Source: Candidatus Lokiarchaeum ossiferum (GTDB lineage: Archaea > Asgardarchaeota > Lokiarchaeia > Sigyniarchaeales > Promethearchaeaceae). From it: 32,000 nt of DNA. Under the pieces are notes generated by a model. It was not told where the DNA came from. It made no database searches and saw only the letters and a list, made by a program, of their open reading frames with translations. The position numbers were made by a program, and so were the translations under genes. The stretch lies in contig CP104013.1 of NCBI GenBank assembly GCA_025839675.1, forward strand, positions 2,610,001 through 2,642,000. Direction: 5' to 3'. Shown here piece by piece: positions 1,109 to 23,594 of the stretch; within the stretch, counting starts at the first letter, position 1; the number at the start of each line of letters is the position of its first letter.

Positions 1109-2269
1109 ATGCCCGAATTTGAACTTCTTAAGCAAAAGCATAATGATATATTTGGAGAAGACCCCGAATTAATCGTTCATGCTCCCGGGAGAGTCAACTT
1201 AATTGGTGAACATACAGATTATTCCAAAGGATTTGTTATGCCGATGGCAATCGATATGGGTATCACCGTGGCAATCTCGAAAATACCAGATTCGAATTTA
1301 ATTTCAGTGTATTCACTTGATTTTGATAAAAAAATGGTCGCAATGTACTCAGATTTGGTAAAAAGCAATGTAGATTGGTTTAATTATCCTATTGGAGTTG
1401 TGAAAGTTTTACAAAAGAAAGGTTACAAATTTGAAGGAATAAGAATAACATTTACAGGAAATGTGCCTCAAGGTGCGGGATTATCATCTTCTGCAGCATT
1501 GGAAGTTGGAGTTGCCTTTGCAATTCAAAAAATATATAATTTAGAAATTTCTGGAACAGAGATGGCCTTAATTTGCCAACAAGCAGAACATGAAGTCGTG
1601 GGTGTAAAATGTGGGATCATGGATCAATACATCTGCCGCATGGGTGCAGTTAACCAAGCGATGTTAATCGATTGTCAAAGTTTGGAATATCGATTAATTC
1701 CTTTGGATCTCGGAAATTATAAAATGATTATCACTAACTCAAATGTCCCTCACAAACTTTCTTCCAGTTTATACAATCAACGTGTTTCAGAATGTGAAGA
1801 AGCGGTGAAAATTTTATCGGAAGAAAAACCCGGAAAATTCTTACGTGATTATACAGAAGAGGATTATAAAAAAAGTCATGATATATTTCCTCCAGAGATT
1901 AGAAAGCGAGCTTTCCATGTCATTTCAGAAAATCAACGCGTATTAGATGCAGAAAAAGCACTTCAATCTCATGATCTAACAGCCTTTGGTAATTTAATGA
2001 ATGCATCACATAAATCCTTAGAAATCTATTATGAAGTATCGTCTGTCGAACTTGATTGGCTCGTTGAGGCCGCTCAAACTATCGAGGGATGCATTGGTTC
2101 AAGAATGACAGGTGCAGGTTTCGGAGGATGTACAATATCCATATTGTCTCCCGAGGCATTAAAAATATATCTCGAAAAACTTCCCGCCTATGAAGAAAAA
2201 TTTGGGTATAAACCAATTACTTATGAAGTTACGCCTGTTGAAGGGGTTCATGAAATTTGGAAAAAATAA
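1109..2269 (+). CDS. galK: galactokinase
   Basis: Carries the galactokinase signature GRVNLIGEHTDY, the GHMP-kinase ATP motif PQGAGLSSSAALEV and the C-terminal MTGAGFGGC motif. Length is typical at 386 aa. Confidence 0.93.
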   Translation: MPEFELLKQKHNDIFGEDPELIVHAPGRVNLIGEHTDYSKGFVMPMAIDMGITVAISKIPDSNLISVYSLDFDKKMVAMYSDLVKSNVDWFNYPIGVVKVLQKKGYKFEGIRITFTGNVPQGAGLSSSAALEVGVAFAIQKIYNLEISGTEMALICQQAEHEVVGVKCGIMDQYICRMGAVNQAMLIDCQSLEYRLIPLDLGNYKMIITNSNVPHKLSSSLYNQRVSECEEAVKILSEEKPGKFLRDYTEEDYKKSHDIFPPEIRKRAFHVISENQRVLDAEKALQSHDLTAFGNLMNASHKSLEIYYEVSSVELDWLVEAAQTIEGCIGSRMTGAGFGGCTISILSPEALKIYLEKLPAYEEKFGYKPITYEVTPVEGVHEIWKK

Positions 2270-2274
2270 AAAAA
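2258..2274 (-). terminator. oligo-T terminator of the eight-gene minus-strand operon, overlapping the galK 3' end
   Basis: The minus strand reads TTTTTTTATTTTTTCC immediately after the TAA of the last operon gene. The convergent galK and operon stop codons are only 5 nt apart. A perfect 8-bp stem with a 4-nt loop (ATTTGAAA-CCGT-TTTCAAAT, 2281-2300) lies just downstream of the galK stop. Confidence 0.45.
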
Positions 2275-2757
2275 TTAAAGATTTGAAACCGTTTTCAAAT
2301 TCAAATCCTTCATAATATTTTTAAACGCACCCTTTCCTATCGGGGTGATTTCAATTTTTTCCCCACCTTTTGTCCCTTGGAGGGACAAATATTCCAGGGT
2401 AATTAGAGATTCGACATCTGACCATACATTTTTAAAAATTTTTTTCATTTTTGCAACGTCCAGATCATTTCCTATTTCATTTGCTGTTGCAATAAGAAGT
2501 GCCATGGTTCCGTACATGCTCGGAGTTATTCTTGAATCTTTTCCGGGAGTTGTTACAACGAAATAACGATCTCCTTGAAATTTGGTTCGAATCAATGATA
2601 AACCTAGATTTTTAAAATCTGAAACGAGCTGGGGAATAATCTGAGAATACTCTTCATTGGAAGAGCATAAATTCCGGACATCTTGTTCTTTCACCATTCC
2701 AGTTTGATTCTGAAGAAGTATTCGACTTAGTCGGGCGGTTAATTGTTCATTTACCAT
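2275..2757 (-). CDS. operon gene 8: small protein with two winged-helix-like halves (kite/ScpB/ESCRT-II-like architecture, unverified)
   Basis: The track ORF 2275..2775 starts at TTG. The ATG at 2757 (MVNEQ...) is preceded by GTGAT. Two similar halves are visible: ...VRNL...LVSDFKNLGLSLIRTKFQGDRYFVVT and ...AKMKKIF...ITLEYLSLQG..GEKIEITPIGKG. No catalytic motif is present. Confidence 0.8.
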   Translation of the reverse strand: MVNEQLTARLSRILLQNQTGMVKEQDVRNLCSSNEEYSQIIPQLVSDFKNLGLSLIRTKFQGDRYFVVTTPGKDSRITPSMYGTMALLIATANEIGNDLDVAKMKKIFKNVWSDVESLITLEYLSLQGTKGGEKIEITPIGKGAFKNIMKDLNLKTVSNL

Positions 2758-2778
2758 TATTATCACTTTTTTCAATTA

Positions 2779-4446
2779 TCATTTATTAGAAAGATCTATT
2801 GTTGGAGAAACATCAAAATTTGTTTGTTCCATGAAAAAAACAACGTGAATTGCCTCTTCTAAAGGCAATAAAAGAATTTGCTCAGACAATAATTGAGTTG
2901 CTTTAATGAATGTTTGTTTTGTTACTATTGACGGAGGAAGAGATTTGAATTCAATCGGAATTAGACTTATTCCTAATGTGAGATAACAACTGACAATCAG
3001 AGTTAAAATAAGATAAGCTTTTTCAACTCGTTTTAATTCTTCAAGGTTTGTCTCTACTCCTTTTTTATTTTTCAAAATAAGATTCACCTTCAAATCTTCA
3101 TTAGACTCCCCTTCAATTGAATTTGAGAAATTTATTTGAAAATCCATAGGTTCCAATAACAAATTCATGAAATTTTGAAGAGATTTTAAAGTGTGAATGT
3201 AAGAGCGAAAAAGGGTGTCTATTTTATCATTTTTTTCGAATTCACTAACAGAGCTCGAGATATTTTTCAAAATATCTTCCATTTTTGAAATTCGATTTTC
3301 TATATCTTTGGAAATAGTGGATGATTCTGTTGAATGAAAGATCTCATCAAGTTTCGAGAGAATTAGATTTTGACGTTGTTTCTTTTGCATCAATAATTCT
3401 TCAACTTGAGCCAAAGAAGTATAAGGAATATGATCAAGAGACAAATCAATATTGGATGAGGATGATTTACCAGAATCCACCATCAAATTCAACTCAGTTT
3501 CAATTTCTTGAATTTGTTTTTGTAATGATTCAATTTGAGAGCGTAAACTTAAAAATTTGGCTTCAATTTCTTGAAATTGGGGTTGAAAAGAGCGTAATTC
3601 CTTGTTTGATTGTTTGAATTCATTTCTGGATTTTAGTAATCTCTGCTTAATACCCTTACTCTCGTTCATTATGCTATTCCGATGAGATTTTAGTTTATCA
3701 TATTCAACTTTTAATGTATTATATTTCTTCTGAATACGTTTGTAATCTTCTGCTTGAAGTTCGGGATCTAAATCTGCAAGTTTATCAAGATAGGTTTGCA
3801 TACTTGGATCTCTTTCATCCATCATCTTAGTTATCTCATTAGTTTGGCGAAACAAGACACGTTGTTCTTCTTTAAGAGATTTTTGAATAGAATTATAATC
3901 ATTCTTCTTTTTTAGATAATTCTGCATTCGATCAGCATAAACAGAATATTCATCTTTTTCAATTTCAAATTTTGGCTGCAAATTGGCCAATTCTTTTTGC
4001 AATTTAGCCAATAAATCTTTCTTGGTAATATAAAGACTGTTTTCAGTAATTTCTTTTAACTTAAGCTGATATGCTATCAAAGTCGTTATTTCTTCTTTAA
4101 TAGTATTTTGTTCAGCTAAAATTGTATTAATCCTTAAGATATTTGGAAATACTTTGGAAACATTATTCAATTGATTAAAGGCATGTACAACTCCTGTCCA
4201 AGTTTGAGCCGTAGATGATGAAATTTCTTTGTTAATTAAGTTTGAGCTCGAAAGAATGGATGGAAATAAATGAATAAATGTATTCAGTTTTAGAGGATTT
4301 TCAAAAATATCAGGAAAATATTCATTCCATTCTACAATTTTTAAATTTTCTCCTGAAATCGAAGATACATCGCAATCCCCTTTTAGAAATAGTAATGGAG
4401 ATTCTATAAGAATTGCTTGGTCATTAATTATTATTTTATTATTCAT
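2779..4446 (-). CDS. operon gene 7: long coiled-coil protein with globular ends and no P-loop
   Basis: 555 aa. The central ~300 aa are heptad-rich and K/E/Q/L-rich (e.g. LRSQIESLQKQIQEIETELN). The N-terminal ~100 aa and C-terminal ~150 aa look globular. A 22-residue hydrophobic stretch (AYLILTLIVSCYLTLGISLIPI) could be a TM helix or a buried core. There is no GxxGxGK[ST]. The start lies 4 nt after the upstream stop. Confidence 0.85.
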   Translation of the reverse strand: MNNKIIINDQAILIESPLLFLKGDCDVSSISGENLKIVEWNEYFPDIFENPLKLNTFIHLFPSILSSSNLINKEISSSTAQTWTGVVHAFNQLNNVSKVFPNILRINTILAEQNTIKEEITTLIAYQLKLKEITENSLYITKKDLLAKLQKELANLQPKFEIEKDEYSVYADRMQNYLKKKNDYNSIQKSLKEEQRVLFRQTNEITKMMDERDPSMQTYLDKLADLDPELQAEDYKRIQKKYNTLKVEYDKLKSHRNSIMNESKGIKQRLLKSRNEFKQSNKELRSFQPQFQEIEAKFLSLRSQIESLQKQIQEIETELNLMVDSGKSSSSNIDLSLDHIPYTSLAQVEELLMQKKQRQNLILSKLDEIFHSTESSTISKDIENRISKMEDILKNISSSVSEFEKNDKIDTLFRSYIHTLKSLQNFMNLLLEPMDFQINFSNSIEGESNEDLKVNLILKNKKGVETNLEELKRVEKAYLILTLIVSCYLTLGISLIPIEFKSLPPSIVTKQTFIKATQLLSEQILLLPLEEAIHVVFFMEQTNFDVSPTIDLSNK

Positions 4447-4450
4447 TTTA

Positions 4451-5266
4451 TTAATACTTCCCTCGTCGAGATTTCTTTGTGTATTTTCGTTTACTTATAG
4501 ATTTTCTTTTAGCCCGTTCTAAATCCCTTTCACTCATTTTAAAATATTCTTGATAATTATCAAAAGATTTTTTTTGTTGTGCCTTTTTTTGCTCCAATTT
4601 TTTATGTTCTATAGCTTTTTCAAAATCTTGACGTAATTGTTCGGATTTTTCTGAAGATTCAGATTCTTCTTGAGTTGATGAATCAAATTTTTTAGGTTTA
4701 TTCAATTCTAAGAAATCCGCAAAAGAAATCTGTTGTTTATAATATATTTTTCGATATTCTTCACGAACTCCGTCATCAATTTCCATGGGAACTTTGCTTA
4801 ACTCTAAGTCAATCTTCGTATCCAAAAGCTGTAAATAAAAATTTTGCAAATTCGATAAGATGGGTAAGAATTTGTCGGTCGTAAACAAAATTTGTTTTAT
4901 TTTAGTCCAGTAATCAGGGGATATCGAGGAGACCAAATGAGCAGTTCCAATTGATTTTTCTAAAATCTGATTACCTATGAAATATAATCCAATTTTTTGA
5001 GTTTGTAATGGATTTGCTTGATTTTGGATATCATTTATTATTTGGGATTGATAATCTTCAAAAATCACATTTTTTATGGGAGAAAAAATGGAATCGAGTC
5101 TTGAAAAGAGAGTGGATAATTTAGTTTTCACATTTTTCAAGGATTCAGGTAAATTTTCATATAATTCCATGTTTAAATCAAGATCTGAAAGATTTCCTCT
5201 AATCTGATCTGATATTTGTAAGATTTTCTGCAGGGAAGCCTTGTCAATTATTTGATTCTGAGACAT
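4451..5266 (-). CDS. operon gene 6: hypothetical protein with an acidic Ser/Glu patch and a strongly basic C-terminal tail
   Basis: 271 aa. It ends ...EESESSEKSEQLRQDFEKAIEHKKLEQKKAQQKK...RAKRKSISKRKYTKKSRRGKY. I recognise no family. Confidence 0.82.
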   Translation of the reverse strand: MSQNQIIDKASLQKILQISDQIRGNLSDLDLNMELYENLPESLKNVKTKLSTLFSRLDSIFSPIKNVIFEDYQSQIINDIQNQANPLQTQKIGLYFIGNQILEKSIGTAHLVSSISPDYWTKIKQILFTTDKFLPILSNLQNFYLQLLDTKIDLELSKVPMEIDDGVREEYRKIYYKQQISFADFLELNKPKKFDSSTQEESESSEKSEQLRQDFEKAIEHKKLEQKKAQQKKSFDNYQEYFKMSERDLERAKRKSISKRKYTKKSRRGKY

Positions 5267-5290
5267 TTTTCATTCACTTTGAAAAATTGA

Positions 5291-6397
5291 TTATAAATCG
5301 ATATCTAGGTCATCTAAATCATCAATTTTCGATGATTTATTTGAAATAGGGGAATTTGTGTTGGAAATAGCTGCATTATCAGCAGTATCAGGCGTAATGC
5401 CAGCAAGTTTCTGACTTTGGATAACATGAGTTTCAGTACCACCACACACTTCAAGTGATCTCATATAATCTTCATACAAGAGAACAGATTTCTTCAAAGC
5501 TTTAAATAAGGCAACTCGCATCGCTCGCATCAAATCTGCCCCAGTATAACCCAATGTATGGTACAGAAGACCTTCTAAATTTTTTTGTTTTAACTCAGTG
5601 AAAAGAGAATAATATTCAACATCGGTCAGCTCTCGCCCTAACTTCTTCTTTTGAGCATTATATTTATCAATAAGATAATCATATTCCTTTTTTAAAGAAC
5701 TTGTTAAACGCTTATCAATAGAAATTGTTGCTTTTTCAAGCCGAGTCAAAAAAGATTCCATGATTTGCTTCCTTACGATAAAATTAGGGAAAGGAAAGGA
5801 CAAATGATAGGTAAAACGCCGCCATACTGCACTATCTAATTGTTTTTCGTGATTGGTAGCTCCAAAAATTGCAAGAGGGATAGCGTCATAGGATATTTTA
5901 TCAATAATTTGTAAAAAGGAAATAACAGCCCTTTTAATTTCCCCAACTTCGTGTGCATTAGCCCTTTCACCGGTTATAGCATCAATTTCATCAAAAAACA
6001 ACAAAAATACGCCATTTTCCTTAGTGAATTCTGCAGCAAGATCAAACACACCTCTCATGTTTTTCACAGTATCCCCCAGCAATGGAGAAACTAAGCGATC
6101 GGCTTCAACAAGTCCCATTGGAATATCAAATTTCTTTGCCATCGCTCTTGTTAAAGCTGTTTTTCCAGTTCCTGGCGGCCCATAAAGTAACATTGTAAAA
6201 TTAGGAGTAATTTTCGCTTCCGCTAATCGGGGGGCAATATCTACATATTTTTTCAAACTTAAGAAAAAATCAGATAGCATTTCTTTTTTATCTTCTAAAC
6301 CAATGATATCGGTAATTTCTTCTTTAATATCTTCCGGAGTATAAATGGTACCAAATTTTTGAAACCGTTGGCGCATTTCTTCAACTGTAAAGGTCAT
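5291..6397 (-). CDS. operon gene 5: classic-clade AAA+ ATPase with a single AAA module and no N-terminal domain
   Basis: Walker A is LLYGPPGTGKT (GPPGTGKT at 6158-6181), Walker B is LLFFDEIDA, and the second region of homology is GATNHEKQLDSAVWRRF. A TGADL lid motif is present. Only ~65 aa precede the P-loop. The C-terminus is acidic: ...KIDDLDDLDIDL. Confidence 0.92.
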   Translation of the reverse strand: MTFTVEEMRQRFQKFGTIYTPEDIKEEITDIIGLEDKKEMLSDFFLSLKKYVDIAPRLAEAKITPNFTMLLYGPPGTGKTALTRAMAKKFDIPMGLVEADRLVSPLLGDTVKNMRGVFDLAAEFTKENGVFLLFFDEIDAITGERANAHEVGEIKRAVISFLQIIDKISYDAIPLAIFGATNHEKQLDSAVWRRFTYHLSFPFPNFIVRKQIMESFLTRLEKATISIDKRLTSSLKKEYDYLIDKYNAQKKKLGRELTDVEYYSLFTELKQKNLEGLLYHTLGYTGADLMRAMRVALFKALKKSVLLYEDYMRSLEVCGGTETHVIQSQKLAGITPDTADNAAISNTNSPISNKSSKIDDLDDLDIDL

Positions 6398-6425
6398 TTT
6401 TTTTCACTTCTACTACTAAATAATT

Positions 6426-7688
6426 TCAATCTTCTTTTTCAATTCCCAATAACTTTTCAAGTTCATCTACAAGATAAAATGTTAATTTATCAATTGCTTC
6501 AATCTTTCCACCAAGGAAATTAAACAATTCCTTACGATAAGTAGGAGAATCACGAATTTTCGTTCGATCAAGCCGTAAATATTTATCAAAACATAATAGC
6601 TTCATCAAATACGGCAAAATTTTTTCTTCTGTTTTCATATCCAGAAAAAGATTATAAAAAATGTTCTCGTCTGATAACACGGTGTGCAAGACTGCATTGT
6701 AAATAATGAAGGCAAAATTCATTGCAATCCAATTCACTAATTCTTTTGATAAAAAGCCCCTTCGGAAGGATGCTTTGGCAAGATATAAAAGAATTAGAGT
6801 TTCATTGCTAAATTGAGGAATCCAACGCGTTTTTCCATCCGAATCTTCTTGGGCAGCGACATACTTATGATCTTTAGCAAGTTCAATGAATTTTTCTGTA
6901 GGTCCAACAAAAATCCCCATTATTAGTTGTAATTCCATACGTTGAACAATTCGTTTAATTGATTCTTCTTCAGCATTAGCAATAGAATCTATATAAGGCT
7001 CAAATACATCAGAAATCATAATAGTAGGAATTACAAAATCTGGATTTTCTTCTAAATCCATGAAGTTTGGATCCAAATTGAAGAGAGAAGTAATATTATT
7101 AACAATTTGATAGGCTTTTGGGCTTAATCCGGGTACGGTCATTTCTCCAATTTTCTCTCTATAAAATGTTGTTGGCTGCAATAAATATCTCTGAGCATCA
7201 TACCATTCGGGAGAATTTTCAATAAGTTGGCTATAAATATCTTCCAATCGATTTCCTTGAGGAAATAACACTTCAATTAACATATTCGCAAGCTTTCCCA
7301 TAATTGATTCCGATTGTTTATTATAATCATCTTCAGCCAAATCCAATAATACATCAAAGGCTTTTAGCGCTTCATCAATAAAATCAAGAATATAATCTCG
7401 AATATCTTGCAAATTAAATTCAGAGTCTTCTTTTAATTCTTCGATATAATTAATAATGTGGCGATAAATTTCATTTCGGAAAAAAGCATTAAATTCTGTT
7501 AAGGATTTGACATTTTTTACCTTTCTTTTAGATTCTTCCTCCAAAATTTCCTTCAAGTTATCGATGTTTCCAAGTTGCTCCAAATCTAAATCAAGAATAG
7601 TTCGTTTGGTTTCATGAAGTAACGGTTGAATAATTGAAATGTAAGTCTTATAATACGCAACAATATCTTCCCATCTTTCTCGTGCCAT
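6426..7688 (-). CDS. operon gene 4: hypothetical helical protein, distant paralog of gene 3
   Basis: 420 aa. AGGAG lies 9 nt upstream of the ATG. I recognise no motif. Its C-terminal half aligns by eye with gene 3 (see findings). Confidence 0.85.
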   Translation of the reverse strand: MARERWEDIVAYYKTYISIIQPLLHETKRTILDLDLEQLGNIDNLKEILEEESKRKVKNVKSLTEFNAFFRNEIYRHIINYIEELKEDSEFNLQDIRDYILDFIDEALKAFDVLLDLAEDDYNKQSESIMGKLANMLIEVLFPQGNRLEDIYSQLIENSPEWYDAQRYLLQPTTFYREKIGEMTVPGLSPKAYQIVNNITSLFNLDPNFMDLEENPDFVIPTIMISDVFEPYIDSIANAEEESIKRIVQRMELQLIMGIFVGPTEKFIELAKDHKYVAAQEDSDGKTRWIPQFSNETLILLYLAKASFRRGFLSKELVNWIAMNFAFIIYNAVLHTVLSDENIFYNLFLDMKTEEKILPYLMKLLCFDKYLRLDRTKIRDSPTYRKELFNFLGGKIEAIDKLTFYLVDELEKLLGIEKED

Positions 7689-7718
7689 GATTTTTTCTCC
7701 TAATAAGTTTTAAAAAAA

Positions 7719-8846
7719 TTAATCAATATCTGAATCCCCCGAAACAGTTACTTCTTGGAATATAGAGCTGATCTCGACAAAAATAGGAATTTCCACACGA
7801 CAGAGGTTTCCTAAAACCCACTTATTAACATCTTTTATTAAGAATCGTGTTTGAAGATGTAACCGTTTTTGTGCATCACTTTTCTCAATTTTATCATACC
7901 ATTTAGAGGCACCTAATCTGAATGCGACAATTTCAATGGTGGCGGGTAGTAATTCTGTCAACACATTTTTCATCATCCAACTTTTTGGAATAACACTCAT
8001 CATCCCAGCATCAAATCCAGGATCTCGCAAAATAGGACTGTCTTCGGCCAATTTTACTTTGGGCATAAAGCTGAGTATTAATATAAGAGCAAAAATGGCG
8101 CAAATACCATTTATTTTGTAAGGATCTAAAGAATATCGATCAATTGCAAATCGTGCCAGAAAAAGAGCAGTAAAAACATTTTTATCAAAATCATCATTCA
8201 CCATTGTTTCGCCCTTTTCTGTTCGGATAACATAGGATCCTTCTAATAATTCAAGGATTTCTTCAGGAAAAGTATAAAATCGGACAACTTTTTCTTCACT
8301 TCGGGCCAGATCATGCTTAAAGATCCGCTCTTCCACCACAAGTCCCAAAAAATCGGCAATCTTATCCAATTGCTTTTGAATAGTTTTACGGGGTTTTTCG
8401 GGATTGCCAAACATAGCAAAAAAAGCGTAATCCGAGATTCGGAAATTTTTGGATTTTTTGAAGGCTTCAATTATGCGATCCACAATTGGTCCTTCCTTAA
8501 AAGATCCAAAAGATTTTGATTGGGATGCAATGAATCCATTGATAAGTTCGTTAATAACAAAAGAATTTTCGTGTTGTTGTTCTAGAGTTTTTAACACTTT
8601 AGCATAGGCTTCTCCTAAACTGGAAGTTCGAGGGAAGAATGAATTTTGAATCGATTCATCAATACTTTTTACCATTAGTTCACCATTATCCTTGGGAAGA
8701 TATCGTTTTAATTCCTCAAATCGGCGAATTAACTGATCTTTTGCCCCAGGAATGTTGTCAATATCTCTTTCTTTAATAAATTCGAGAGATTTGTCCAATG
8801 CCGTTGTAAAATTGCCTAATAATTCATTCCATAATGCCATTGCCAT
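7719..8846 (-). CDS. operon gene 3: hypothetical protein, distant paralog of gene 4
   Basis: The track ORF starts at TTG 8891 and overlaps gene 2 by 35 nt. The ATG at 8846 (MAMALWNELL...) is preceded by AGGTG about 8 nt upstream and lies 10 nt after the gene 2 stop, so I prefer it. The protein ends ...VSGDSDID. Confidence 0.82.
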   Translation of the reverse strand: MAMALWNELLGNFTTALDKSLEFIKERDIDNIPGAKDQLIRRFEELKRYLPKDNGELMVKSIDESIQNSFFPRTSSLGEAYAKVLKTLEQQHENSFVINELINGFIASQSKSFGSFKEGPIVDRIIEAFKKSKNFRISDYAFFAMFGNPEKPRKTIQKQLDKIADFLGLVVEERIFKHDLARSEEKVVRFYTFPEEILELLEGSYVIRTEKGETMVNDDFDKNVFTALFLARFAIDRYSLDPYKINGICAIFALILILSFMPKVKLAEDSPILRDPGFDAGMMSVIPKSWMMKNVLTELLPATIEIVAFRLGASKWYDKIEKSDAQKRLHLQTRFLIKDVNKWVLGNLCRVEIPIFVEISSIFQEVTVSGDSDID

Positions 8847-8856
8847 TTTATTACAC

Positions 8857-10083
8857 CTAATTTTTGTTAGATTCTTTATGTCGAGTCTCAATTTTTTTTA
8901 CGTGATTTAATAATTCTGTTTTTTTCATTCGTACCAAGGCCGTTTTGTTGTACTCGTTTGTTTCATCATTATCTAAGATCCAATGAACTATATCGACTTT
9001 CTTTGTCCGAATATAAGGTACTTCAGTAGAAGGACTAGATTTCTGACTTACAGATTTAGATTTGGTAGATTTTTTAAGAGATATTTGGTGAGCTTTAGCA
9101 TCTTCTTCTGCTTTCTTAGGATCAATTCCCTTCGCTTTCTGCCATTCAAGTTTCATCGTTTTCAATGCTTCAATCAATAATGGCACATGTTCCTTTTCAT
9201 AAATATTGGGAGACATCACACCTTTCTTGGTTTCCCAACGCAAACCTTGTGTATTGCCTAACGAATATTCGGTTGTCATGTAACGCTGTAAATTTCTTTG
9301 CCACCAATAAAAGCGCAACCATTTTTTTTCAGGATTTTCTTTCGCATAGATGGTGACTAATGCTTTCCAATCAGCCATAGTGGACCGAACACTAATTCCA
9401 TAGCTGGGAAGATAGAAATTTACAGGAAAATTTGTAGAGTAACTTAAAGGAAGTGCTTCTGAAGGATAATCAAATATTGGATGTCCTTCATCCAATACAA
9501 TGATTTCTCCACAACGTTCACATTCATAATATCGCTTGTTCTTACTTTTCTTCATCTTCCATTTACATTTTGGACAGATACGTTTCTTTAAATCAAATAC
9601 AAAATATTTATCTTCAATACCTGCACGTTCTGGAATCGGATCAAAGCTTATGGTGACATTTTCCTTAGGATTAAAATTCTCATCAAAATCTTCATTAATT
9701 CGGTTAAGGACAATCAAAATATTTTCTAATTCTTCAAAACTATCTATTTTGAACATCCCTGCATGGACATTGATCGATTTTTTCCACCATGAAATTCGCA
9801 GATATTTAATATTAGGAAAGTTGGGAGAATGACACATAAGTACAGCAATCCACCACTTGTCACGTTCTCTGGCAACAGTGATCCCAGAATCAGCAACTTC
9901 CCACTTAGGATTGAGGGCAGTATTCTTCATGAAAAATTCCCCATCTTTCAAAATAGATTCTTGGACTTCTATTTTTTCTTCTTGTATCAGACCACGAAAG
10001 ATTTTCCTACAATTAGAACAGTTCATTACCCCAGGTACAAGTTCTACTAACTCCCCAATCCCACAGCTCGGACATTTTGTCAT
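8857..10083 (-). CDS. operon gene 2: protein with two zinc-ribbon plus Trp-rich-domain modules and a basic linker
   Basis: Ribbon 1 is CPSC..x14..CSNC (aa 4-25) and ribbon 2 is CPKC..x14..CERC (aa 170-191). Each is followed by a ~90-aa domain containing DKWWIAVL...YLRISWWKK or DWKALVTI...WLRFYWWQR. A K/S-rich linker and a small helical C-terminal domain follow. Confidence 0.85.
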   Translation of the reverse strand: MTKCPSCGIGELVELVPGVMNCSNCRKIFRGLIQEEKIEVQESILKDGEFFMKNTALNPKWEVADSGITVARERDKWWIAVLMCHSPNFPNIKYLRISWWKKSINVHAGMFKIDSFEELENILIVLNRINEDFDENFNPKENVTISFDPIPERAGIEDKYFVFDLKKRICPKCKWKMKKSKNKRYYECERCGEIIVLDEGHPIFDYPSEALPLSYSTNFPVNFYLPSYGISVRSTMADWKALVTIYAKENPEKKWLRFYWWQRNLQRYMTTEYSLGNTQGLRWETKKGVMSPNIYEKEHVPLLIEALKTMKLEWQKAKGIDPKKAEEDAKAHQISLKKSTKSKSVSQKSSPSTEVPYIRTKKVDIVHWILDNDETNEYNKTALVRMKKTELLNHVKKIETRHKESNKN

Positions 10084-10145
10084 ATTTGATCAGTTTCTCA
10101 CTTTAAAATTAATATTTTTTTATTCTCAGGAAAAATAGATGTTGT

Positions 10146-11300
10146 TCAATCATCGTCATCATCATCAAGTCCTTCTTCAATTATTAATCGCTCTACATCT
10201 AAATTTATTATTTTTAATTCCTTCTTGGAATAATCTGCCAGGGTTGTGCTGATTTGTTTTAACGCGTTCCGAGCTTCAATTAAGAGATTTTTAATGATTT
10301 CTGAAATATTATCTTCATCATAGGTAGATTTTGTAATAAAAGTCATATAGGGCATAATTTGTTTTTTACCAGAATAATATGCGCGTAATTTATCCATTTT
10401 TGCATTTATTTCATCAAAAGTTAGCTTTAAACCAATTAGGATGTTGAATGTATTTCTCCATTCTTGATATTCTTCAGGTATTTCATCCTTTGGAAATTCG
10501 ACCCGGAATTTTGAAGATAGAGATTTTTTTCGGGATTTTTCCTGAAGATATTTAAGAAAATCCGTTTTTTTCAAGTCCTTTGCCTTTCGGAATTTCTTCA
10601 TCATTGTCGATTTATAAATTTCTTTATCATACAACCCCAGATAATCATTCAAATCTTGTTCAATTTCCGTGTATTTATCCGCCATAGCTCGAATCATAAT
10701 TTCGATTCGTAAAGCTTGATAGGGATTTCCAAGTTCCTCTATTATATAATAAAAATCATCATCGATAACATAATAATCGCCGTATTTATGAACTAATTCA
10801 TGAATAACGGAAGTTTTAGGACACATCATTGCACGCAACCTTTCCAATGATGCATGAATGCGAACTTGAGTCATTTCCCTTATATCGGGGACAATCACTC
10901 GTTCTAAGAGATTTTCTTGGAAAAATATATGTACTTCTTCTTCCGATTCAGATAGTTCTTCTCGGGCCAATTTAAGCCCACTCGCTAACCGAATTTTGAT
11001 ATGATCCCCTTTCATTTGAAAAACAGAGTGATTTTTAATGTTTGTAATAATGTGAAATTGAAATAGAGATTTTATTAAGTCTGGAGAGCAAATTCGCCTT
11101 AGATCCCCCGCAGTGGGTTCATCGACGTCCATAATGGTTTCAAATTCATCCATCAAATCATCGTCCAAAAGATCTTGAAATAATTCTTTCCGTAAAATAA
11201 ACATGTAAAGAGCAACGTATCGGAGATCGGGAGAATCAAAGACATCTTCTAACAATTCCCTATCATATTCCATTTCCAAAGTTTTATGTTGTTCAGCCAT
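10146..11300 (-). CDS. operon gene 1: hypothetical acidic protein with an HExxH motif and a hexa-Asp C-terminus
   Basis: The track ORF starts at TTG 11312. The ATG at 11300 (MAEQHK...) has GGTGG 5-6 nt upstream. It contains SVIHELVHKY (HELVH at 10788-10802) and ends EEGLDDDDDD. Confidence 0.82.
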   Translation of the reverse strand: MAEQHKTLEMEYDRELLEDVFDSPDLRYVALYMFILRKELFQDLLDDDLMDEFETIMDVDEPTAGDLRRICSPDLIKSLFQFHIITNIKNHSVFQMKGDHIKIRLASGLKLAREELSESEEEVHIFFQENLLERVIVPDIREMTQVRIHASLERLRAMMCPKTSVIHELVHKYGDYYVIDDDFYYIIEELGNPYQALRIEIMIRAMADKYTEIEQDLNDYLGLYDKEIYKSTMMKKFRKAKDLKKTDFLKYLQEKSRKKSLSSKFRVEFPKDEIPEEYQEWRNTFNILIGLKLTFDEINAKMDKLRAYYSGKKQIMPYMTFITKSTYDEDNISEIIKNLLIEARNALKQISTTLADYSKKELKIINLDVERLIIEEGLDDDDDD

Positions 11301-11468
11301 TAGAACCACCAAGGGGAAATACCACTAATTTGCGGTAGAGGTCGTAAAAAAGATAAGTTGGTTAATGTTTATTTACCAAAAAAGTTTTCGTTTTTGACAA
11401 TAAGACAACGGTGTAGCTAAAGGTAAAAACTTTGAAAATCAACAAAAACTAATTTTAATTGAAAACCT

Positions 11469-18035: not shown

Positions 18036-18656
18036 ATGGGTAGACGAAAACGAAAGAAAATAACCTATCGCCCGGTAAGATCATTGCCTAAAATCTTTAC
18101 ATGTCCGAAATGTGGACATAAGACTATGAAAGCAAACTTGAAACATGCAGAAGATCGAGTGTTAATAGTTTGTGGGCATTGTGGAGAACAACAAGCAGTA
18201 GGAAAACATGAATTAACCGAACCCGTTGATGCTTTCGGTGATTTTATTGATATTTATTATAAAGATCAAGAATATGAACGATTAACCAGAAGAGAAGAAA
18301 AATTACTGGAAAAACAACAATATTCTGAATTAAGTCTAGTTTATTCCTTTCTCAGCGACACTGCACAAATCAATGCGGATAAAGCCCTTGAAGAGTATGA
18401 GTTAAATAAAGATCCGGAAGATCTTTCTAACGCTGAACAATGGCAAGAAACCGCCCGTCAATATAAAGAAAATGAAAAGAAATTAACTGAACAGTTGAAA
18501 TCTGGGGTGATTGTCGACGCTGAGCTTGAAGACGAAGTTTATGACGAAATTGAAGACAATCCCTTCGATGAAGGAGAAGCGAAGATTTCAGAAAAACCGA
18601 AACGGAAATCCAACATCGAAGATGTCTTGGGTGATTTAGGTTTCTTAGAATTTTAG
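18036..18656 (+). CDS. elf1: transcription elongation factor Elf1 homolog with a long acidic C-terminal extension
   Basis: MGRRKRKK...FTCPKCGHKT...VCGHCGEQQAV..HELTEPVDAFGDFIDIYY parallels eukaryotic Elf1: a basic N-tail, a C4 zinc ribbon and the L(S/T)EPVDVYxDWID block. About 130 additional E/D/K-rich residues follow. Confidence 0.85.
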   Translation: MGRRKRKKITYRPVRSLPKIFTCPKCGHKTMKANLKHAEDRVLIVCGHCGEQQAVGKHELTEPVDAFGDFIDIYYKDQEYERLTRREEKLLEKQQYSELSLVYSFLSDTAQINADKALEEYELNKDPEDLSNAEQWQETARQYKENEKKLTEQLKSGVIVDAELEDEVYDEIEDNPFDEGEAKISEKPKRKSNIEDVLGDLGFLEF

Positions 18657-19257: not shown

Positions 19258-19307
19258 TCATCTTCTTTTTTCACTTAAAATGGCCCCTATTAAGTTGATT
19301 GCCTAAA

Positions 19308-20222
19308 ATGGAAGATTCTCACTTAACCCCACCACATCCGAAGCCGGAATTTATTCCTCAAGTGAGTCTTCTTCAAATTATTGGATATTTTTTCTTTATT
19401 GTGGCAATTTGGGCAATACCTATTGCAAGCGTACTGATGTTAGGTATTATTTACATTAAACGAGTATTGATCCCAGATATCCAGATCTATGCAAATCCAT
19501 TATTGGTAGTTCAAAATGCATTTAATGGAAATGTAAAATTTCTTCTTATATCTCTCGCTACTCCAGCAGGAATATTGTTACTTTACTTATTTGAACTATT
19601 TTTAGTGGCTCTATTGACAAAAATATTCATTGGATACTGTAATTATCTCTCTCCAGAAAAAGAAATGGTGGGAGCAAAGGGTTTAGGAGGAGATGAACAA
19701 CGAGATGTGGACATATATCATTTACGTGGAGCTATTTATCGGATTATGAAATGGATTTTTGCACGATGTCCTTTTCCCTGGTTAATAAAATGGGCTTTTT
19801 CTTTTGCAGGAAACAACAAATATGGAAAGGGAACTGTGCTTGAGGATCAATATTATTGTCAAGAATTCTTTGAAACTGGAGAAAATGTCTATATAGACAA
19901 ATTAGCAATTGTTAGTTCCCATTTAGTAGAAGGAGCATATGGAGCAATTACTTTAAAGAAGGTTCATGTTGGAGATAATTGTGTCATTGGGGCTAACGTC
20001 GGTGTTTCACCAGGGGCATTTATGGAACCAAATTCTGAAATTGTGAATAATTCCATGGTTCCCAAGTTTAAGAAGTTCAAGTCTGGGGCAAAATATCATG
20101 GGATTCCCGTAAAAAAAATGAGTCTTGAAGAATATGAACAATTATTACATTTAACGACAACGGATAAATCAAATCCCGCTAATATTAAACAAATTCAACA
20201 GAATGAAACAGAACAAAGGTAA
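19308..20222 (+). CDS. membrane-anchored hexapeptide-repeat (left-handed beta-helix) protein, type A, copy 1
   Basis: The track start is TTG 19299, with an ATG at 19308. Two N-terminal TM helices are followed by PFPWL and imperfect hexapeptide repeats (GKGTVLEDQ...GENVYIDKLAIVSSHLVEGAYGAITLKKVHVGDNCVIGANVGVSPGAFMEPNSEIV). Confidence 0.8.
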   Translation: MEDSHLTPPHPKPEFIPQVSLLQIIGYFFFIVAIWAIPIASVLMLGIIYIKRVLIPDIQIYANPLLVVQNAFNGNVKFLLISLATPAGILLLYLFELFLVALLTKIFIGYCNYLSPEKEMVGAKGLGGDEQRDVDIYHLRGAIYRIMKWIFARCPFPWLIKWAFSFAGNNKYGKGTVLEDQYYCQEFFETGENVYIDKLAIVSSHLVEGAYGAITLKKVHVGDNCVIGANVGVSPGAFMEPNSEIVNNSMVPKFKKFKSGAKYHGIPVKKMSLEEYEQLLHLTTTDKSNPANIKQIQQNETEQR

Positions 20223-20231
20223 CAGAAAAAA

Positions 20232-21434
20232 ATGTCGAGTACAGTACCAACAACATTACGGGCTGGTCCCGCAACAACAAATACATTGGCGTCACAAAGT
20301 TTTACTGCAATATATGGACTGATCATATGGTTAGCTTTAATTCCATGCTTCTTTCTAACCACCAAACTAATTACATTATTTGATGATACCCTTCTTTTTA
20401 TTGCCCTGATTTTACCAATCTTTATATTCCTAATCTATTTTATTTTTTTTGTTTCAGTAATTCTTTGGTCTGCGGTAATTCTCAAAACAGTTAATTTGAT
20501 TCATACTCCCAAGGAAGGAATTTTTCCACGAGATAATAAAAACCGCGATTATAAATTCTGGAGTTTACGAGCAGTAATAAAAAAATTTCCATTATGGGTG
20601 TGCCATAATGTCGGTCCCTTCCCATGGACTGATGTTTTTGCTATGAAAGTATTTGGAAATCATGTGACCTATAAGTCTCCAGTGTTTGATGCTTGGGTTG
20701 ATGCAGAATTCATGGATATCGGACGGGGCACAACTATCGGTCAAGGGGTGGTTATTATGACATCAATGATCACTACCGACTTTTTAATAATCAAAAGAGT
20801 AAAAATTGGCAAAAATGCGGTGATTGGAGCGCATTCGGTAATATCACCTGGAACAAAAATAGGAGATAATGCCATTATTGGAGCTTTAAGTGCCACTGAG
20901 ATTGACCAGGAAATAGAAAGTGATTTTGTGTATATGGGGAATCCGGCAAGAAAAATCCGAAAAGCTGCATTCAAAATTAAAGATGAGCTATCGGCCCATG
21001 AACGAGCCCTTCAGAAGAAATATGATGAAATTAAAGCGAAAATTCCTGAAATTGAGCCAAAAAGACATATTGTCGGTACTAAAGCAAGTTTGCAATTGCA
21101 TAAAAGTGAATTCAAGGAAAAACGAGCGATGCATCACGAAGAAAAAGCATATGTTAAACAAGCTAAAGCGAAATCCAAAGCTCGTAAAAGTGAATATAAG
21201 ATTGAAAGACTACAATTTAAAGCAGATAAGCATATTTATAAAGCAGAAAAGCAGAAATATGAATCCATTTTAGCTATGCAAAAAGCTCAGCGGGCAATTA
21301 ATGAAAAGATCGAAAAAGATCGCCATAAATTGCAAAAAATAGAAAATACGGAGAGAGAGAGAGAAATCAAAGATAAACGTCATATAACTTTCCGATTAAA
21401 AAAGAAATCAACCGAAACTAAGGCGGAAGAATAA
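20232..21434 (+). CDS. membrane-anchored hexapeptide-repeat protein, type B, copy 1, with a K/R/E-rich coiled-coil tail
   Basis: The conserved N-peptide MSSTVPTTLRAGPATTNTL is followed by 2-3 TM helices, FWSLR...PFPW, and LbH repeats (IGRGTTIGQGVVI...VKIGKNAVIGAHSVISPGTKIGDNAIIGALS...YMGNPA). A ~160-aa charged tail follows. The start lies 9 nt after the A1 stop. Confidence 0.85.
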   Translation: MSSTVPTTLRAGPATTNTLASQSFTAIYGLIIWLALIPCFFLTTKLITLFDDTLLFIALILPIFIFLIYFIFFVSVILWSAVILKTVNLIHTPKEGIFPRDNKNRDYKFWSLRAVIKKFPLWVCHNVGPFPWTDVFAMKVFGNHVTYKSPVFDAWVDAEFMDIGRGTTIGQGVVIMTSMITTDFLIIKRVKIGKNAVIGAHSVISPGTKIGDNAIIGALSATEIDQEIESDFVYMGNPARKIRKAAFKIKDELSAHERALQKKYDEIKAKIPEIEPKRHIVGTKASLQLHKSEFKEKRAMHHEEKAYVKQAKAKSKARKSEYKIERLQFKADKHIYKAEKQKYESILAMQKAQRAINEKIEKDRHKLQKIENTEREREIKDKRHITFRLKKKSTETKAEE

Positions 21435-21502
21435 GTTTTCTTTTTTTTTATTTACAACCAAATGCTTTTTTAATTCGCTTAACTTTAAATTACTCGATTT
21501 TC

Positions 21503-22417
21503 ATGGAAGAAGCGGGTGAAGAAAAACAAACAAATTCAAATTCTTCACAAGGATTTATTCCTCGAGCCAGATTAGAATTGGATAAATATTTTATTGTTAT
21601 TGTGCTTATATGGGGATATTCTTGGCTTATTCCAGTTGCGATTCTTTATCAGTACTACAATTTATTAATTCAACCAGACCTACACATTTATGCTAGTGTC
21701 ATCCAAATTTTTTCTTCTGAAAAATACATTTTAGTTTTTTTTCTTTCCCCAGTTGTTCTTATTGGACTTTACCTATTTAGGTTGTTTTTCGTAATTTTGT
21801 TCAGTAAAATTGCAATTTGGTTATGCAACCTCCGATCTCCCATGAAAGAATTAATTGCATCAAAGGGAATTGGGAAGGAAGAAGCAAGAGACATTAATAT
21901 TTATCATCTAAGGGGGATGATCCTTAGGATATTAAAATGGGAAATCAGTAAATCTCCTTTTCCATGGTTAGTTCCTGCAGCGTTTAACTTTGTGAATGTG
22001 AGTGAAATTGGTAAGGGAACCACTTTGGAAGATCAATTTTACACGCAAGAATTTCTCGAAACGGGAGAAAATGCATATATTGGCCAAGGATCAATAGTTA
22101 GTTCGCATTTGGTTGAGGGAAAATATGGCGCAATCACTTTGAAAAAAGTTAGAATTGGTCAAAATGCAGTTCTTGGACCATTTAATCCAATTTCTCCAGG
22201 AGCTTTGATAGGAGACTATGCTGAATTCTTACCAATGAGCGGAGTTGCTAAATTTCAAAAAGTTCGTGGATTTTCAAAATATTATGGGCTCCCAGTTGCG
22301 AGAATCAGTACCAAGCGATATATTAAAATGTGTCAAATTCCCCCAGAATTAGAATTTCGCGTTCGAGACACAAAATTATTAAAAAGAAAAGTTAAAAAGA
22401 AGAAAACGGAAGAATAA
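21503..22417 (+). CDS. membrane-anchored hexapeptide-repeat protein, type A, copy 2
   Basis: Collinear with 19308..20222 and roughly half identical by eye, e.g. IYHLRG..L.I.KW......PFPWL, GKGT.LEDQ.Y.QEF.ETGEN.YI, IVSSHLVEG.YGAITLKKV. Confidence 0.85.
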   Translation: MEEAGEEKQTNSNSSQGFIPRARLELDKYFIVIVLIWGYSWLIPVAILYQYYNLLIQPDLHIYASVIQIFSSEKYILVFFLSPVVLIGLYLFRLFFVILFSKIAIWLCNLRSPMKELIASKGIGKEEARDINIYHLRGMILRILKWEISKSPFPWLVPAAFNFVNVSEIGKGTTLEDQFYTQEFLETGENAYIGQGSIVSSHLVEGKYGAITLKKVRIGQNAVLGPFNPISPGALIGDYAEFLPMSGVAKFQKVRGFSKYYGLPVARISTKRYIKMCQIPPELEFRVRDTKLLKRKVKKKKTEE

Positions 22418-22421
22418 CATC

Positions 22422-23594
22422 ATGTCAAGTAGCATCCCAGCCAGTTTAAAATCTGGACCGAGCACAACAAATACTTTAGTTTCCAAAGGATATTTAGTAA
22501 TCTATTTCATTATAATGTGGTTGTCTATTATGCCTCCATTTCTACTAACTTTGATATTTCTTGATAACTTTAAAATTGAAATGGTATATCTTCTCTGGAG
22601 TTTTCCCTTATTTTTAATAATTGGATATCTTGTTTTATTTTTCTCGGTGATTTTTTGGTCTTGGGTAATTTTAAAGGTCGTAAATTGGATCCATCCTCCA
22701 AAAGAAGGCGTGTTTCCACGTGAAGCAAAGAATAAAGATTTCCGATTTTGGAGTTTAAGATCGGTGATTAAGAAACTACCGCTTTGGATCTCCCACAATT
22801 CCCCCATACCATGGGGAGATTCCATCGCATTTAAGTTGTTTGGGAATCATGTTTCCATGAAGACACCGTTGTTTGATGCTTGGATCGATGCAGAATTCTT
22901 AGAAATAGGTACAGGGACAACGATTGGTCAAGGTGCAGTAATCATGACTTCAATGATCACCGTGGAATTTCTAATCATAAAACCGGTCAAAATCGGAAAG
23001 GATTGTCTCATTGGAGCTCACTCCGTTGTATCTCCAGGAACTCAAATAGAAGATCAAGTTATTTTGGGAGCATTAAGTAGTACGACTTTAGGGCAACACC
23101 TAGAGAGCAGCTGGGTTTATTGGGGTAATCCAGCCATAAAATTTAAAGAAATGGCATTTAGAGAACGTGATACATTATCTCCTGAAGAAAGAGCGAAAAT
23201 GAAAAAATATCGAGAAGTCACCGAAGAGTTATCGGATACTGCGGAATTAAAAGGTCGTAAAAGTGCGAAGGCGTTTATTCAAATTCAAAAGAGTGATTAT
23301 AAGGAGCGAAAAGCCTCAAGATTGCAGGCAAGATCAGATTATCAAAGATCAAAAGCCGCATATAAGGCACGTAAACTTGAATTACGCGCAGACAAGAAGC
23401 AAATTAGAGCAGAAAAACAAAGCTTTGACTCATTACGTGCTTTAGAAAAAGCTAAACTTTCGTTGGAAGCAAAAATTCAGAAAAACCGTAGTAAATTAGA
23501 TAGCATCGAAAAGAAAGAATTTGAGAAGGAATCGAAACGATTAGAAAAAAAAAGACTCAAAAAAGAGCGAAAACTGCAACATCATCAAAAATAA
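22422..23594 (+). CDS. membrane-anchored hexapeptide-repeat protein, type B, copy 2, with a K/R/E-rich coiled-coil tail
   Basis: Collinear with 20232..21434, e.g. MSSSIPASLKSGPSTTNTL, PKEG.FPR, FWSLR.VIKK.PLW, FDAW.DAEF..IG.GTTIGQG.VIMTSMIT, IGAHSV.SPGT, GNPA. It has an equivalent charged tail. The start lies 4 nt after the A2 stop. Confidence 0.87.
   Translation: MSSSIPASLKSGPSTTNTLVSKGYLVIYFIIMWLSIMPPFLLTLIFLDNFKIEMVYLLWSFPLFLIIGYLVLFFSVIFWSWVILKVVNWIHPPKEGVFPREAKNKDFRFWSLRSVIKKLPLWISHNSPIPWGDSIAFKLFGNHVSMKTPLFDAWIDAEFLEIGTGTTIGQGAVIMTSMITVEFLIIKPVKIGKDCLIGAHSVVSPGTQIEDQVILGALSSTTLGQHLESSWVYWGNPAIKFKEMAFRERDTLSPEERAKMKKYREVTEELSDTAELKGRKSAKAFIQIQKSDYKERKASRLQARSDYQRSKAAYKARKLELRADKKQIRAEKQSFDSLRALEKAKLSLEAKIQKNRSKLDSIEKKEFEKESKRLEKKRLKKERKLQHHQK

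Follow-up and report, generated by a model that had tools for sequence, protein, structure and literature searches.

SMC complexes are universal DNA-folding motors, and the ABC-type ATPase that they carry themselves is thought to be indispensable. The SMC-kleisin-kite complexes (Smc-ScpAB and the SMC5/6-related sets), the Wadjet (JetABCD)/MukBEF systems and Lamassu (LmuABC) are the described systems against which the subject of this analysis, an eight-gene operon of the Asgard archaeon Candidatus Lokiarchaeum ossiferum, can be set. The operon lies on the minus strand, at positions 2275 to 11300 of a 32,000-nucleotide stretch (contig CP104013.1, positions 2,610,001 to 2,642,000) that is referred to here as the window, and its genes are termed G1 to G8 from first to last. 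G5 encodes an AAA+ ATPase. The product of G7 is best read, from alignment to its relatives, as a shortened SMC protein in which every ATPase motif has been substituted.

The operon as it occurs in the window is termed type A, and a second version that bears a true SMC gene is termed type B. On sequence grounds, the window operon is best placed in an Asgard-only family in which an SMC-type module is coupled to a classic AAA+ ATPase and to a G3/G4 pair of predicted new fold, as the branch whose SMC has lost its ATPase. An AAA+ protein beside a dead SMC relative is a pairing found described nowhere in the searched literature: the search returned no paper linking AAA+ proteins to Asgard SMC operons, and nothing on the locus tags NEF87_00218x or UYP459xx. 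Extra SMC/kleisin/kite sets have been reported in Asgard archaea (10.1101/2024.01.07.573240), and the main text of that report does not contain the string 'AAA'. The best explanation of the operon, in which confidence is evenly divided, is an Asgard-only SMC-derived complex, probably acting on DNA, with the AAA+ protein as its sole motor.

Type-B operons and the ancestry of G7

The type-B operons were found through the loci encoding distant homologues of G4. A G4 profile run exhaustively with HMMER against 1.84 billion representative proteins retrieved only 38 of them. The ten that were traced belong to Asgard archaea or metagenome contigs, and the named members are all Asgard (Candidatus Harpocratesius repetitus, Helarchaeota and other Promethearchaeota). 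The gene order in these loci is G1-like, sometimes G2-like, G3-like, G4-like, an AAA+ protein of ~320 aa and an SMC of ~1050 aa, followed by proteins of ~305, ~305 and ~165 aa; the G1-, G3- and G4-like proteins are termed B1, B3 and B4, and the three after the SMC are BX, BY and BZ. An SMC-family gene comes next after the AAA+ gene in all eight distant loci for which downstream sequence is available, with one opposite-strand gene between the two at locus L088. G1, G3, G4, the AAA+ protein, an SMC-like protein and G8 stay together in the distant variants.

The type-B SMC matches TIGR02169 at 9e-49, as well as SMC_N and AAA_23, and its motifs are intact (GRNGSGKS, HSSGQKQ and AIDEFD). BX contains two or three winged helices of the MarR/Sso10a type (HTH_45, 38.8 bits, above the cut-off) and has a weak match to MksE. 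The C-terminus of BY weakly resembles Nse4_C in two of four proteins (E-values of 0.0013 and 0.0056), with scores under the 26-bit cut-off. In having a true SMC followed by multi-winged-helix, weakly Nse4_C-like and small G8-like proteins, type B resembles an SMC-kleisin-kite set, and the colinearity of G7 with the type-B SMC may extend the likeness to the window. The window operon nevertheless departs from such complexes, since its SMC-like protein is of half length with all ATPase motifs substituted, no kleisin is detectable in the window, and a classic-clade AAA+ protein and the four unassigned proteins G1 to G4 are fixed members here.

G7 (2779 to 4446, minus strand; NEF87_002183, 555 aa) is a coiled-coil protein with small N- and C-terminal globular parts, and it occupies the slot of the ~1050-aa SMC in type-B operons. 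Residues 29-300 of G7 align with residues 151-460 of the type-B SMC (hhalign 78%), residues 393-465 with 929-1001 in the C-terminal head (74%) and, weakly, residues 7-24 with 35-52 near the N-terminus; all three matches are colinear. The motifs of an ABC-type head are present in the type-B SMCs and absent from the window G7, which reads LKRVEK at the signature position and has no P-loop and no DE. In the main Lokiarchaeial clade, G7 reads INGKIKKN at the P-loop position, and the C-termini of 14 orthologs read LTTPEK at the signature, IIFSN at Walker B and SN at the H-loop. The assignment of these motifs to SMC positions is the authors' own reading of the alignment.

The two forms are bridged by a protein from locus L098 (12876-15980), a full-length homologue of 1034 aa that matches both the active SMCs (hhalign 100%) and G7 (80% over 311 columns) and whose own motifs are dead (SGKYEVDK, HDDLHKQ, TLDLSN). 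Its gene is followed by a truncated BY-like gene and then by a G8-like gene. This loss of SMC activity appears to be separate from that of G7. Matches of the G7 C-terminus to TALE proteins in the PDB were set aside as repeat artefacts. Taken as a whole, the comparison makes an SMC ancestry of G7 probable.

At L098, a gene for an S8 peptidase of 1380 aa is found ~3.8 kb upstream of the first operon gene, with a histone-fold gene and PEPCK between them; its presence near the operon is probably coincidental.

The type-B SMC also matches the PADLOC models mad3, LmuB, AriA and JetC, and BX matches LmuC at 3e-9. These matches favour an alternative in which the operon defends against viruses or plasmids in the manner of Wadjet, Lamassu or IetAS, the SMC-like protein acting as a sensor of foreign DNA while the IetA-like AAA+ protein and its partners execute the response. 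Wadjet and Lamassu likewise encode an SMC-like coiled-coil ATPase and small winged-helix partners in one operon; the LmuB, JetC and LmuC matches just given are weak. What is missing is the effector: there is no JetD/Toprim nuclease and no LmuA, with an AAA+ motor instead, and domain searches of the eight proteins and of the examined type-B proteins turned up no effector of any sort, whether nuclease, protease, Toprim, TIR or another. When the JetABCD profiles of PADLOC were applied to the eight proteins, they gave only JetC matches to G7 in the coiled-coil range (E 8.5e-5 to 0.8) and nothing for the others. The sole LmuA match among the eight is to a helical stretch of G3 (E 0.0038). A defence function, the chief rival explanation, is considered rather unlikely overall, and further points on both sides of it arise below from the ATPase and from the history of the locus.

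The AAA+ ATPase and its partners

The product of G5 (5291 to 6397, minus strand; NEF87_002185, 368 aa) had been described in a first-pass annotation as a classic-clade AAA+ ATPase with only ~65 residues before the P-loop, and this is borne out. The Pfam AAA match begins at residue 69 (PF00004, 1.1e-24, 87.8 bits against a cut-off of 21.2), and the first ~65 residues correspond only to the usual pre-core helix region, so that G5 has no N-domain. It is plausible, as was also suggested at first pass, that its neighbours supply substrate recognition in trans. The motifs GPPGTGKT, FFDEIDA, GATNH and LDSAVWRRF are present, and Walker A, Walker B, sensor 1 and the arginine fingers (WRRF) of the second region of homology (SRH) are kept in all type-A and type-B copies. 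Pore loop 1 is aliphatic, reading LLG in G5 and LLG or FLG across the copies. Relative to type-B copies, those of type A carry a ~40-residue insertion before the lid. The window G5 ends in an acidic tail; its main-clade counterpart ends in GPPEI instead. GenBank names G5 'ATP-dependent zinc metalloprotease FtsH' and the other seven proteins 'hypothetical'. The FtsH label is wrong, as G5 has neither the transmembrane nor the M41 protease part and scores only 60 bits against the FtsH equivalog cut-off of 600.

By profile, the closest sub-family of G5 is IetA (PADLOC, 2.7e-56) or IteA (NCBIfam, 8.7e-52), and the CdvC, PAN, Cdc48 and FtsH profiles all score far below these. CdvC is the second-best NCBIfam match at 3e-27, with 95.5 bits against an equivalog cut-off of 650. 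That the best sub-family matches are to the defence ATPase IetA/IteA speaks for the defence alternative. The likeness to IetAS is confined to the AAA core (residues ~35-232): the NF042959 profile aligns residues 35-228 of G5 with profile positions 98-279 of 367 and scores 176.5 bits against a cut-off of 510, so the full-length equivalog score is not reached, and the N- and C-terminal parts of IetA are absent from G5. An IetS-type S8 protease is also lacking in the window, Peptidase_S8 being absent from the eight proteins and from the other window genes that were scanned or carry precomputed Pfam matches.

The best solved relative of G5 by sequence is the D1 domain of p97. Its SRH (D-S-A-x-x-R-R-F) lacks the 'PGR' insert and is, in the authors' reading of the alignment, of the Vps4/katanin style. 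G5 shares this trait and the single-ring classic AAA+ architecture with Vps4/CdvC of the ESCRT-III system, katanin, spastin and Msp1, but differs from these meiotic-clade proteins in its aliphatic pore loop 1, which is aromatic in theirs, and in having no MIT domain, no Snf7/CdvB partner and otherwise unrelated partners. Searches with Pfam found no MIT or Snf7 match at E<=1 in any of the eight proteins. The operon contains no Snf7, MIT, proteasome, FtsH-protease or MoxR/VWA partner and consequently, as was stated at first pass, does not fit the ESCRT, PAN, FtsH or MoxR systems.

These features bear on an alternative in which the operon encodes a protein-remodelling, cytoskeletal or membrane machine unrelated to DNA, the neighbours of G5 being substrate adaptors, as envisaged at first pass, and G7 a structural coiled coil. 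Such a machine would suit a classic-clade ATPase whose SRH is of the Vps4/katanin style and which has itself no recognition domain; G7, having no SMC catalytic motifs, may have been re-used as a coiled-coil scaffold, and the charged tails on several subunits could serve as handles. L. ossiferum, moreover, has an elaborate cytoskeleton. The constant linkage of the family to true SMC ATPases, multi-winged-helix proteins and an Nse4_C-like protein points instead to DNA, and no Snf7, MIT, tubulin, actin or membrane-protein partners accompany G5. This alternative is regarded as improbable.

The seven partners of G5 had been called unrecognisable at first pass. In the sense of database thresholds this remains accurate, as none reaches the cut-offs of Pfam, NCBIfam, PADLOC or PHROG; it fails for G7, readable as an SMC relative, and for G1, G3, G4 and G8, which have homologues in SMC-type operons. 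Against PDB sequences, profiles of the G1, G3, G4, G8, combined G8 and BZ, BX and BY families and of the G7 C-terminus retrieved nothing meaningful, and no consistent Pfam match emerged when every member of the G7 and G8 families was searched. Inspection of the eight sequences by eye, with no predictor run, gave no sign of a signal peptide or of a clear transmembrane protein.

G3 (7719 to 8846, minus strand; NEF87_002187, 375 aa) and G4 (6426 to 7688, minus strand; NEF87_002186, 420 aa) are always found as a pair. G3 is among the three best-conserved proteins, at 49-77% identity in 20 orthologs, and the two match their type-B counterparts closely (hhalign 100% for G3 with B3, 99.9% for G4 with B4). 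The cross-matches between G3 and B4 (79%) and between G4 and B3 (67%) suggest that the two are probably paralogues, and both have an '(L/F)FP' motif after the N-terminal helices. The residues kept across both operon types are hydrophobic, proline or glycine, with a few polar ones (Asp179 in G3 and Thr297 in G4). As no conserved residues look catalytic, G3 and G4 are taken to be non-enzymatic scaffolds or adaptors.

An AlphaFold2 model of G4 made with a diverse alignment that included the distant homologues reached a pLDDT of 88.7 and a pTM of 0.90, compared with a pLDDT of 51.5 with a shallow two-clade alignment. In the model, long helices bundle together at the N-terminus, a central alpha/beta region (~190-291) contains hairpins that resemble those of winged helices, and the C-terminal domain is helical. 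Foldseek searches of the model against the PDB and BFVD returned no match at E<=0.001; the winged-helix sub-domain alone faintly resembles that of ORC2. MukF and JetA structures were not retrieved by the model, and the same searches gave no structural support to the identification of G3/G4 as Nse5/Nse6, MukF/JetA or PCI-like proteins. At L096 (50-6629) and L097 (1-6496), two consecutive pairs of G3-like and G4-like genes (359/711 and 347/706 aa) stand with no adjoining AAA+ or SMC gene, so that the pair can apparently exist and duplicate alone. Tandem duplication of this kind is among the observations that favour a defence system.

G1 (10146 to 11300, minus strand; NEF87_002189, 384 aa) has a conserved N-terminal ~160 aa, then a helical, coiled-coil-like C-terminal half and an acidic tail. 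Orthologs at 24-33% identity are present in 19 loci, and G1 matches the first gene of type-B operons (hhalign 97%, E 1.3e-10) and proteins of L098 and L100 (97%). The HExxH motif noted at first pass is not conserved, the ortholog consensus being IHSLIxEIGEH; the motif thus arose, by this comparison, by chance, and G1 was rejected as an HExxH metalloprotease. Extreme acidic tails had likewise been reported on G1, G3 and G5. They are present, but specific to the L. ossiferum lineage.

G2 (8857 to 10083, minus strand; NEF87_002188, 408 aa) consists of two tandem units, each a CxxC...CxxC zinc ribbon followed by a ~120-aa domain with a GIT...RxSWW motif. The two zinc ribbons counted among the partners at first pass are therefore real, and both lie in this one protein as part of an internal duplication (N half against C half, hhalign 97.3%, E 2.6e-11). 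Their database matches are weak. The tail from about residue 318 is rich in lysine and serine and lineage-specific, orthologs being ~313-326 aa long. G2-like genes are embedded in the type-B operons L089 and L100.

G6 (4451 to 5266, minus strand; NEF87_002184, 271 aa) has a helical N-terminus, a conserved central block (~90-190), a long region rich in lysine and glutamate and a basic tail at its end. It occurs only in type-A operons, with orthologs of 230-352 aa that are 25-40% identical, and a 237-aa protein of L093 matches it at 99.9%. A role for G6 as a linker or kleisin-like tether is a guess. Its comparison with type-B BX or BY gave at most 0.2% in hhalign, and it was rejected as a kleisin for want of similarity to either.

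G8 (2275 to 2757, minus strand; NEF87_002182, 160 aa) is always the last gene, with orthologs in 18 loci and a winged-helix-like sequence pattern, on which the tandem winged-helix call of the first pass stays tentative. It matches BZ, the last gene of type B (hhalign 97.4%, E 1.5e-11), and a 172-aa protein of L098 matches BZ at 97% and G8 at 76%. G8 may have a kite-like role.

Conservation and layout of the locus

A scan for G5, taking one genome per species, found 26 Asgard loci at 49-74% identity; next in rank, at ~27-37%, come unrelated AAA+ proteins from haloarchaea, DPANN archaea and bacteria. By tblastn, G1 to G5 occur in order in nearly all 26 loci, up to contig ends, G6 is found in most and G8 in 18 of the 26. 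G7 is too divergent for tblastn in most loci, and a reading frame of 385-553 aa occupies its slot in 18. The same gene order as in the window is found in about 25 other Asgard genomes, and order and orientation recur at protein identities of 24-78%.

Between the window and the main Lokiarchaeial clade, G3 to G5 are 48-54% identical, G2 ~40% and G8 ~36%, while G1 and G6 stand at ~27-30% and G7 is barely alignable. The flanking Lsm_C, zf-AN1/rhomboid and FHA-M50 genes are 27-37% identical over the same distance. The better conservation of G3 to G5 than of the flanking genes indicates strong purifying selection, and the operon is real, old and under such selection. The possibility that eight unrelated genes are clustered incidentally, which had been raised at first pass, is favoured only by the missing annotation of seven of them; it is refuted by the retention of the cluster in about 25 genomes and in the distant variants, and can be regarded as vanishingly improbable.

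The Lsm_C gene is convergent with G8 in 17 related loci, and a divergent Elf1-like gene lies just upstream of the operon in 11. The window also has both, Lsm_C at 561-1007 and an Elf1-like zinc-ribbon gene at 18036-18656, such that an Elf1-operon-Lsm_C neighbourhood is common to the window and the main clade. In the main clade these two genes directly abut the operon, whereas in the window they are only near it. A further three same-strand genes, for a 210-aa coiled-coil protein, a 160-aa proline-rich protein and a 580-aa protein, lie upstream of Elf1 in 10-16 main-clade loci (e.g. L006:758-4500) and are absent beside the window operon. At L026 (4894-6402) and L030 (4893-6407), one of which is Loki_b32, G1 is ~500 aa long instead of ~366 and G6 to G8 were not detected by tblastn; these loci may represent a further sub-variant of the operon.

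Harpocratesius carries a type-B operon at the same galK/Lsm_C locus, in inverted orientation, with counterparts of G1, G3, G4 and G5 that are 23-37% identical to those of the window. Its G2 (L091:19187-20164, minus) is 60% identical to the window G2 and lies on the opposite strand, just after the type-B operon. Five flanking genes (44-63% identity) put Harpocratesius at the same distance from L. ossiferum as the related locus L005. From these alignments, the operon block is read as swapped or sorted in Harpocratesius around a conserved G2 and flanks.

Such exchange at a conserved locus is a further likeness to Wadjet and Lamassu, and the swapping of the block between related genomes while G2 and the flanks stay, the rapid evolution of G6 and G7 and the narrowness of the family, with its 38 representatives, all favour a defence function. 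Against this are the stable position of the operon, the stronger conservation of G3 to G5 than of the flanks and a housekeeping neighbourhood in the window (galK, Lsm, Elf1, GatDE and ABC transporters). In addition, a PADLOC/DefenseFinder survey of strain B-35, which lists pVip, a restriction-modification system with DrmD, two Pycsar systems, Gabija, RM type IIG and Prometheus, names no system resembling the operon. Prometheus, present in both L. ossiferum strains, was considered and rejected as an identity for it: the profile of its marker ProA spans ~1900 positions, and none of the eight proteins is of that size. The only ProA match is a weak one, in the coiled-coil range, to the Harpocratesius SMC.

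Within the window, ORF calling recovered the eight minus-strand genes at exactly the coordinates of the first-pass annotation, and its account of their spacing and signals is also sustained. The products are NEF87_002182 to NEF87_002189 of L. ossiferum B-35 by exact sequence match, and identical proteins are found on several independent assemblies too. The gaps from G1 to G8 are 62, 10, 30, 28, 24, 4 and 21 nt. Shine-Dalgarno-like motifs precede the starts at 11300 (GGTGG, 8-12 nt 5' of the G1 ATG), 8846 (AGGTG) and 7688 (AGGAG), and the remaining starts have purine-rich motifs of the (A)AGTGA type upstream. G3 also has a possible TTG start further upstream, at 8891, whose use would give a 35-nt overlap with the end of G2. 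Assemblies differ in calling the G3 product as 373, 375 or 390 aa, and orthologs favour the ATG at 8846 or a position a few codons before it.

The 5' intergenic region (11301 to 11468, minus strand), read directly from the sequence, separates G1 from a divergent YCII gene and contains A/T-rich stretches at the expected place of an archaeal promoter, and a putative promoter of the operon is placed there. At the other end, the TAA stop of G8 (2277-2275) is followed directly by an oligo-T tract, T7-A-T6 (2261 to 2274, minus strand), which falls within the 3' end of the convergent galK gene. Oligo-T tracts serve as terminators in archaea, and by analogy with this known use the tract is likely to be the terminator of the operon. 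A scan of the window for bacterial-type promoters and terminators gave no more matches than shuffled sequence, and no tRNA or Rfam family was found in the window.

Elsewhere in the window, at 19299-23594, consecutive gene pairs encode proteins of 307 and 400 aa and then of 304 and 390 aa, the larger product of each pair bearing identically placed hexapeptide-repeat transferase motifs; a two-gene unit appears to have been duplicated in tandem. Outside the window, just beyond Lsm_C (L001:15912-17906), is a gene for a 664-aa N6_N4 methyltransferase that keeps the same position in L005 and Harpocratesius. The gene is a candidate for the 'RM type IIG' system assigned in a preprint to both L. ossiferum strains.

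A proposed SMC-derived machine

The favoured explanation treats the eight genes as one operon, vertically inherited in Lokiarchaeia, that would encode a multi-subunit complex. The ancestral layout, specific to Asgard archaea, would have been G1-(G2)-G3-G4, the AAA+ protein, an SMC ATPase, winged-helix and kleisin-like proteins and G8. In the lineage of the window the SMC subunit, now G7, would have been shortened by about half and would have lost all motifs for the binding and hydrolysis of ATP. With those motifs gone from G7, G5 would be the only ATPase of the complex.

In the arrangement proposed, a dimer of G7, together with G6 and G8, would form a passive DNA-binding clamp or bridge, and the paralogous, non-enzymatic G3/G4 pair, with G1, would dock the G5 hexamer onto it. 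By hydrolysing ATP, G5 might pull on exposed charged segments, namely the lysine- and glutamate-rich half of G6 and the tails, and this pulling would serve to build the scaffold up, open it or strip it away. G2, which bears two zinc-ribbon modules, would be a separately conserved partner that binds nucleic acid or a target. That DNA is the target is suggested by the winged helices of BX, the zinc ribbons of G2 and the basic tail of G6; remodelling driven by the AAA+ protein is likewise presumed.

Several observations weigh against this explanation. No window protein resembles a kleisin, G6 having no detectable kleisin relation, and G8 matches no kite family (ScpB, MukE, Nse1/3 or MksE) by Pfam or PDB profile. 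G7 has no direct SMC match above noise in Pfam or NCBIfam, nor one in the PDB, and its C-terminus taken alone reaches a score of just 24.9 with the type-B SMC, where the maximum in 40 column shuffles was 20.2. The contacts among the eight proteins are themselves a proposal. The aliphatic LLG of pore loop 1 is as in the non-threading D1 ring of p97, so that processive threading is not assured, and the block swap in Harpocratesius would sooner be expected of a conflict system than of core chromosome machinery.

A bolder form of the explanation, which is possible but doubtful, would make the operon a new, Asgard-confined class of SMC-derived machine. In it, an AAA+ unfoldase docked by a new-fold G3/G4 heterodimer would be an obligate partner of SMC and, in L. 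ossiferum and most Lokiarchaeia, would have taken over entirely from the SMC ATPase in driving the loading, opening or stripping of a coiled-coil scaffold that bridges DNA. If this were true, the closest cultured relatives of eukaryotes would organise their chromosomes, or survey their DNA, with a core device unmatched in bacteria, other archaea and eukaryotes.

The annotation of the locus can be improved, with 'hypothetical' proteins and the wrong 'FtsH' label now correctable. As L. ossiferum is among the few cultured Asgard archaea, the prediction is directly testable. G3 and G4 would constitute a new set of AAA+ adaptors, their predicted fold having no match among solved structures. The lineage keeps an SMC-like scaffold under strong selection after loss of its ATPase, apparently more than once (in G7 and at L098), and the neighbouring AAA+ protein is always intact; if that protein drives the scaffold, this would be a new way to power an SMC-type device. 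The operon bears on how chromosomes are organised, or genomes defended, in the archaeal relatives of the eukaryotic ancestor.

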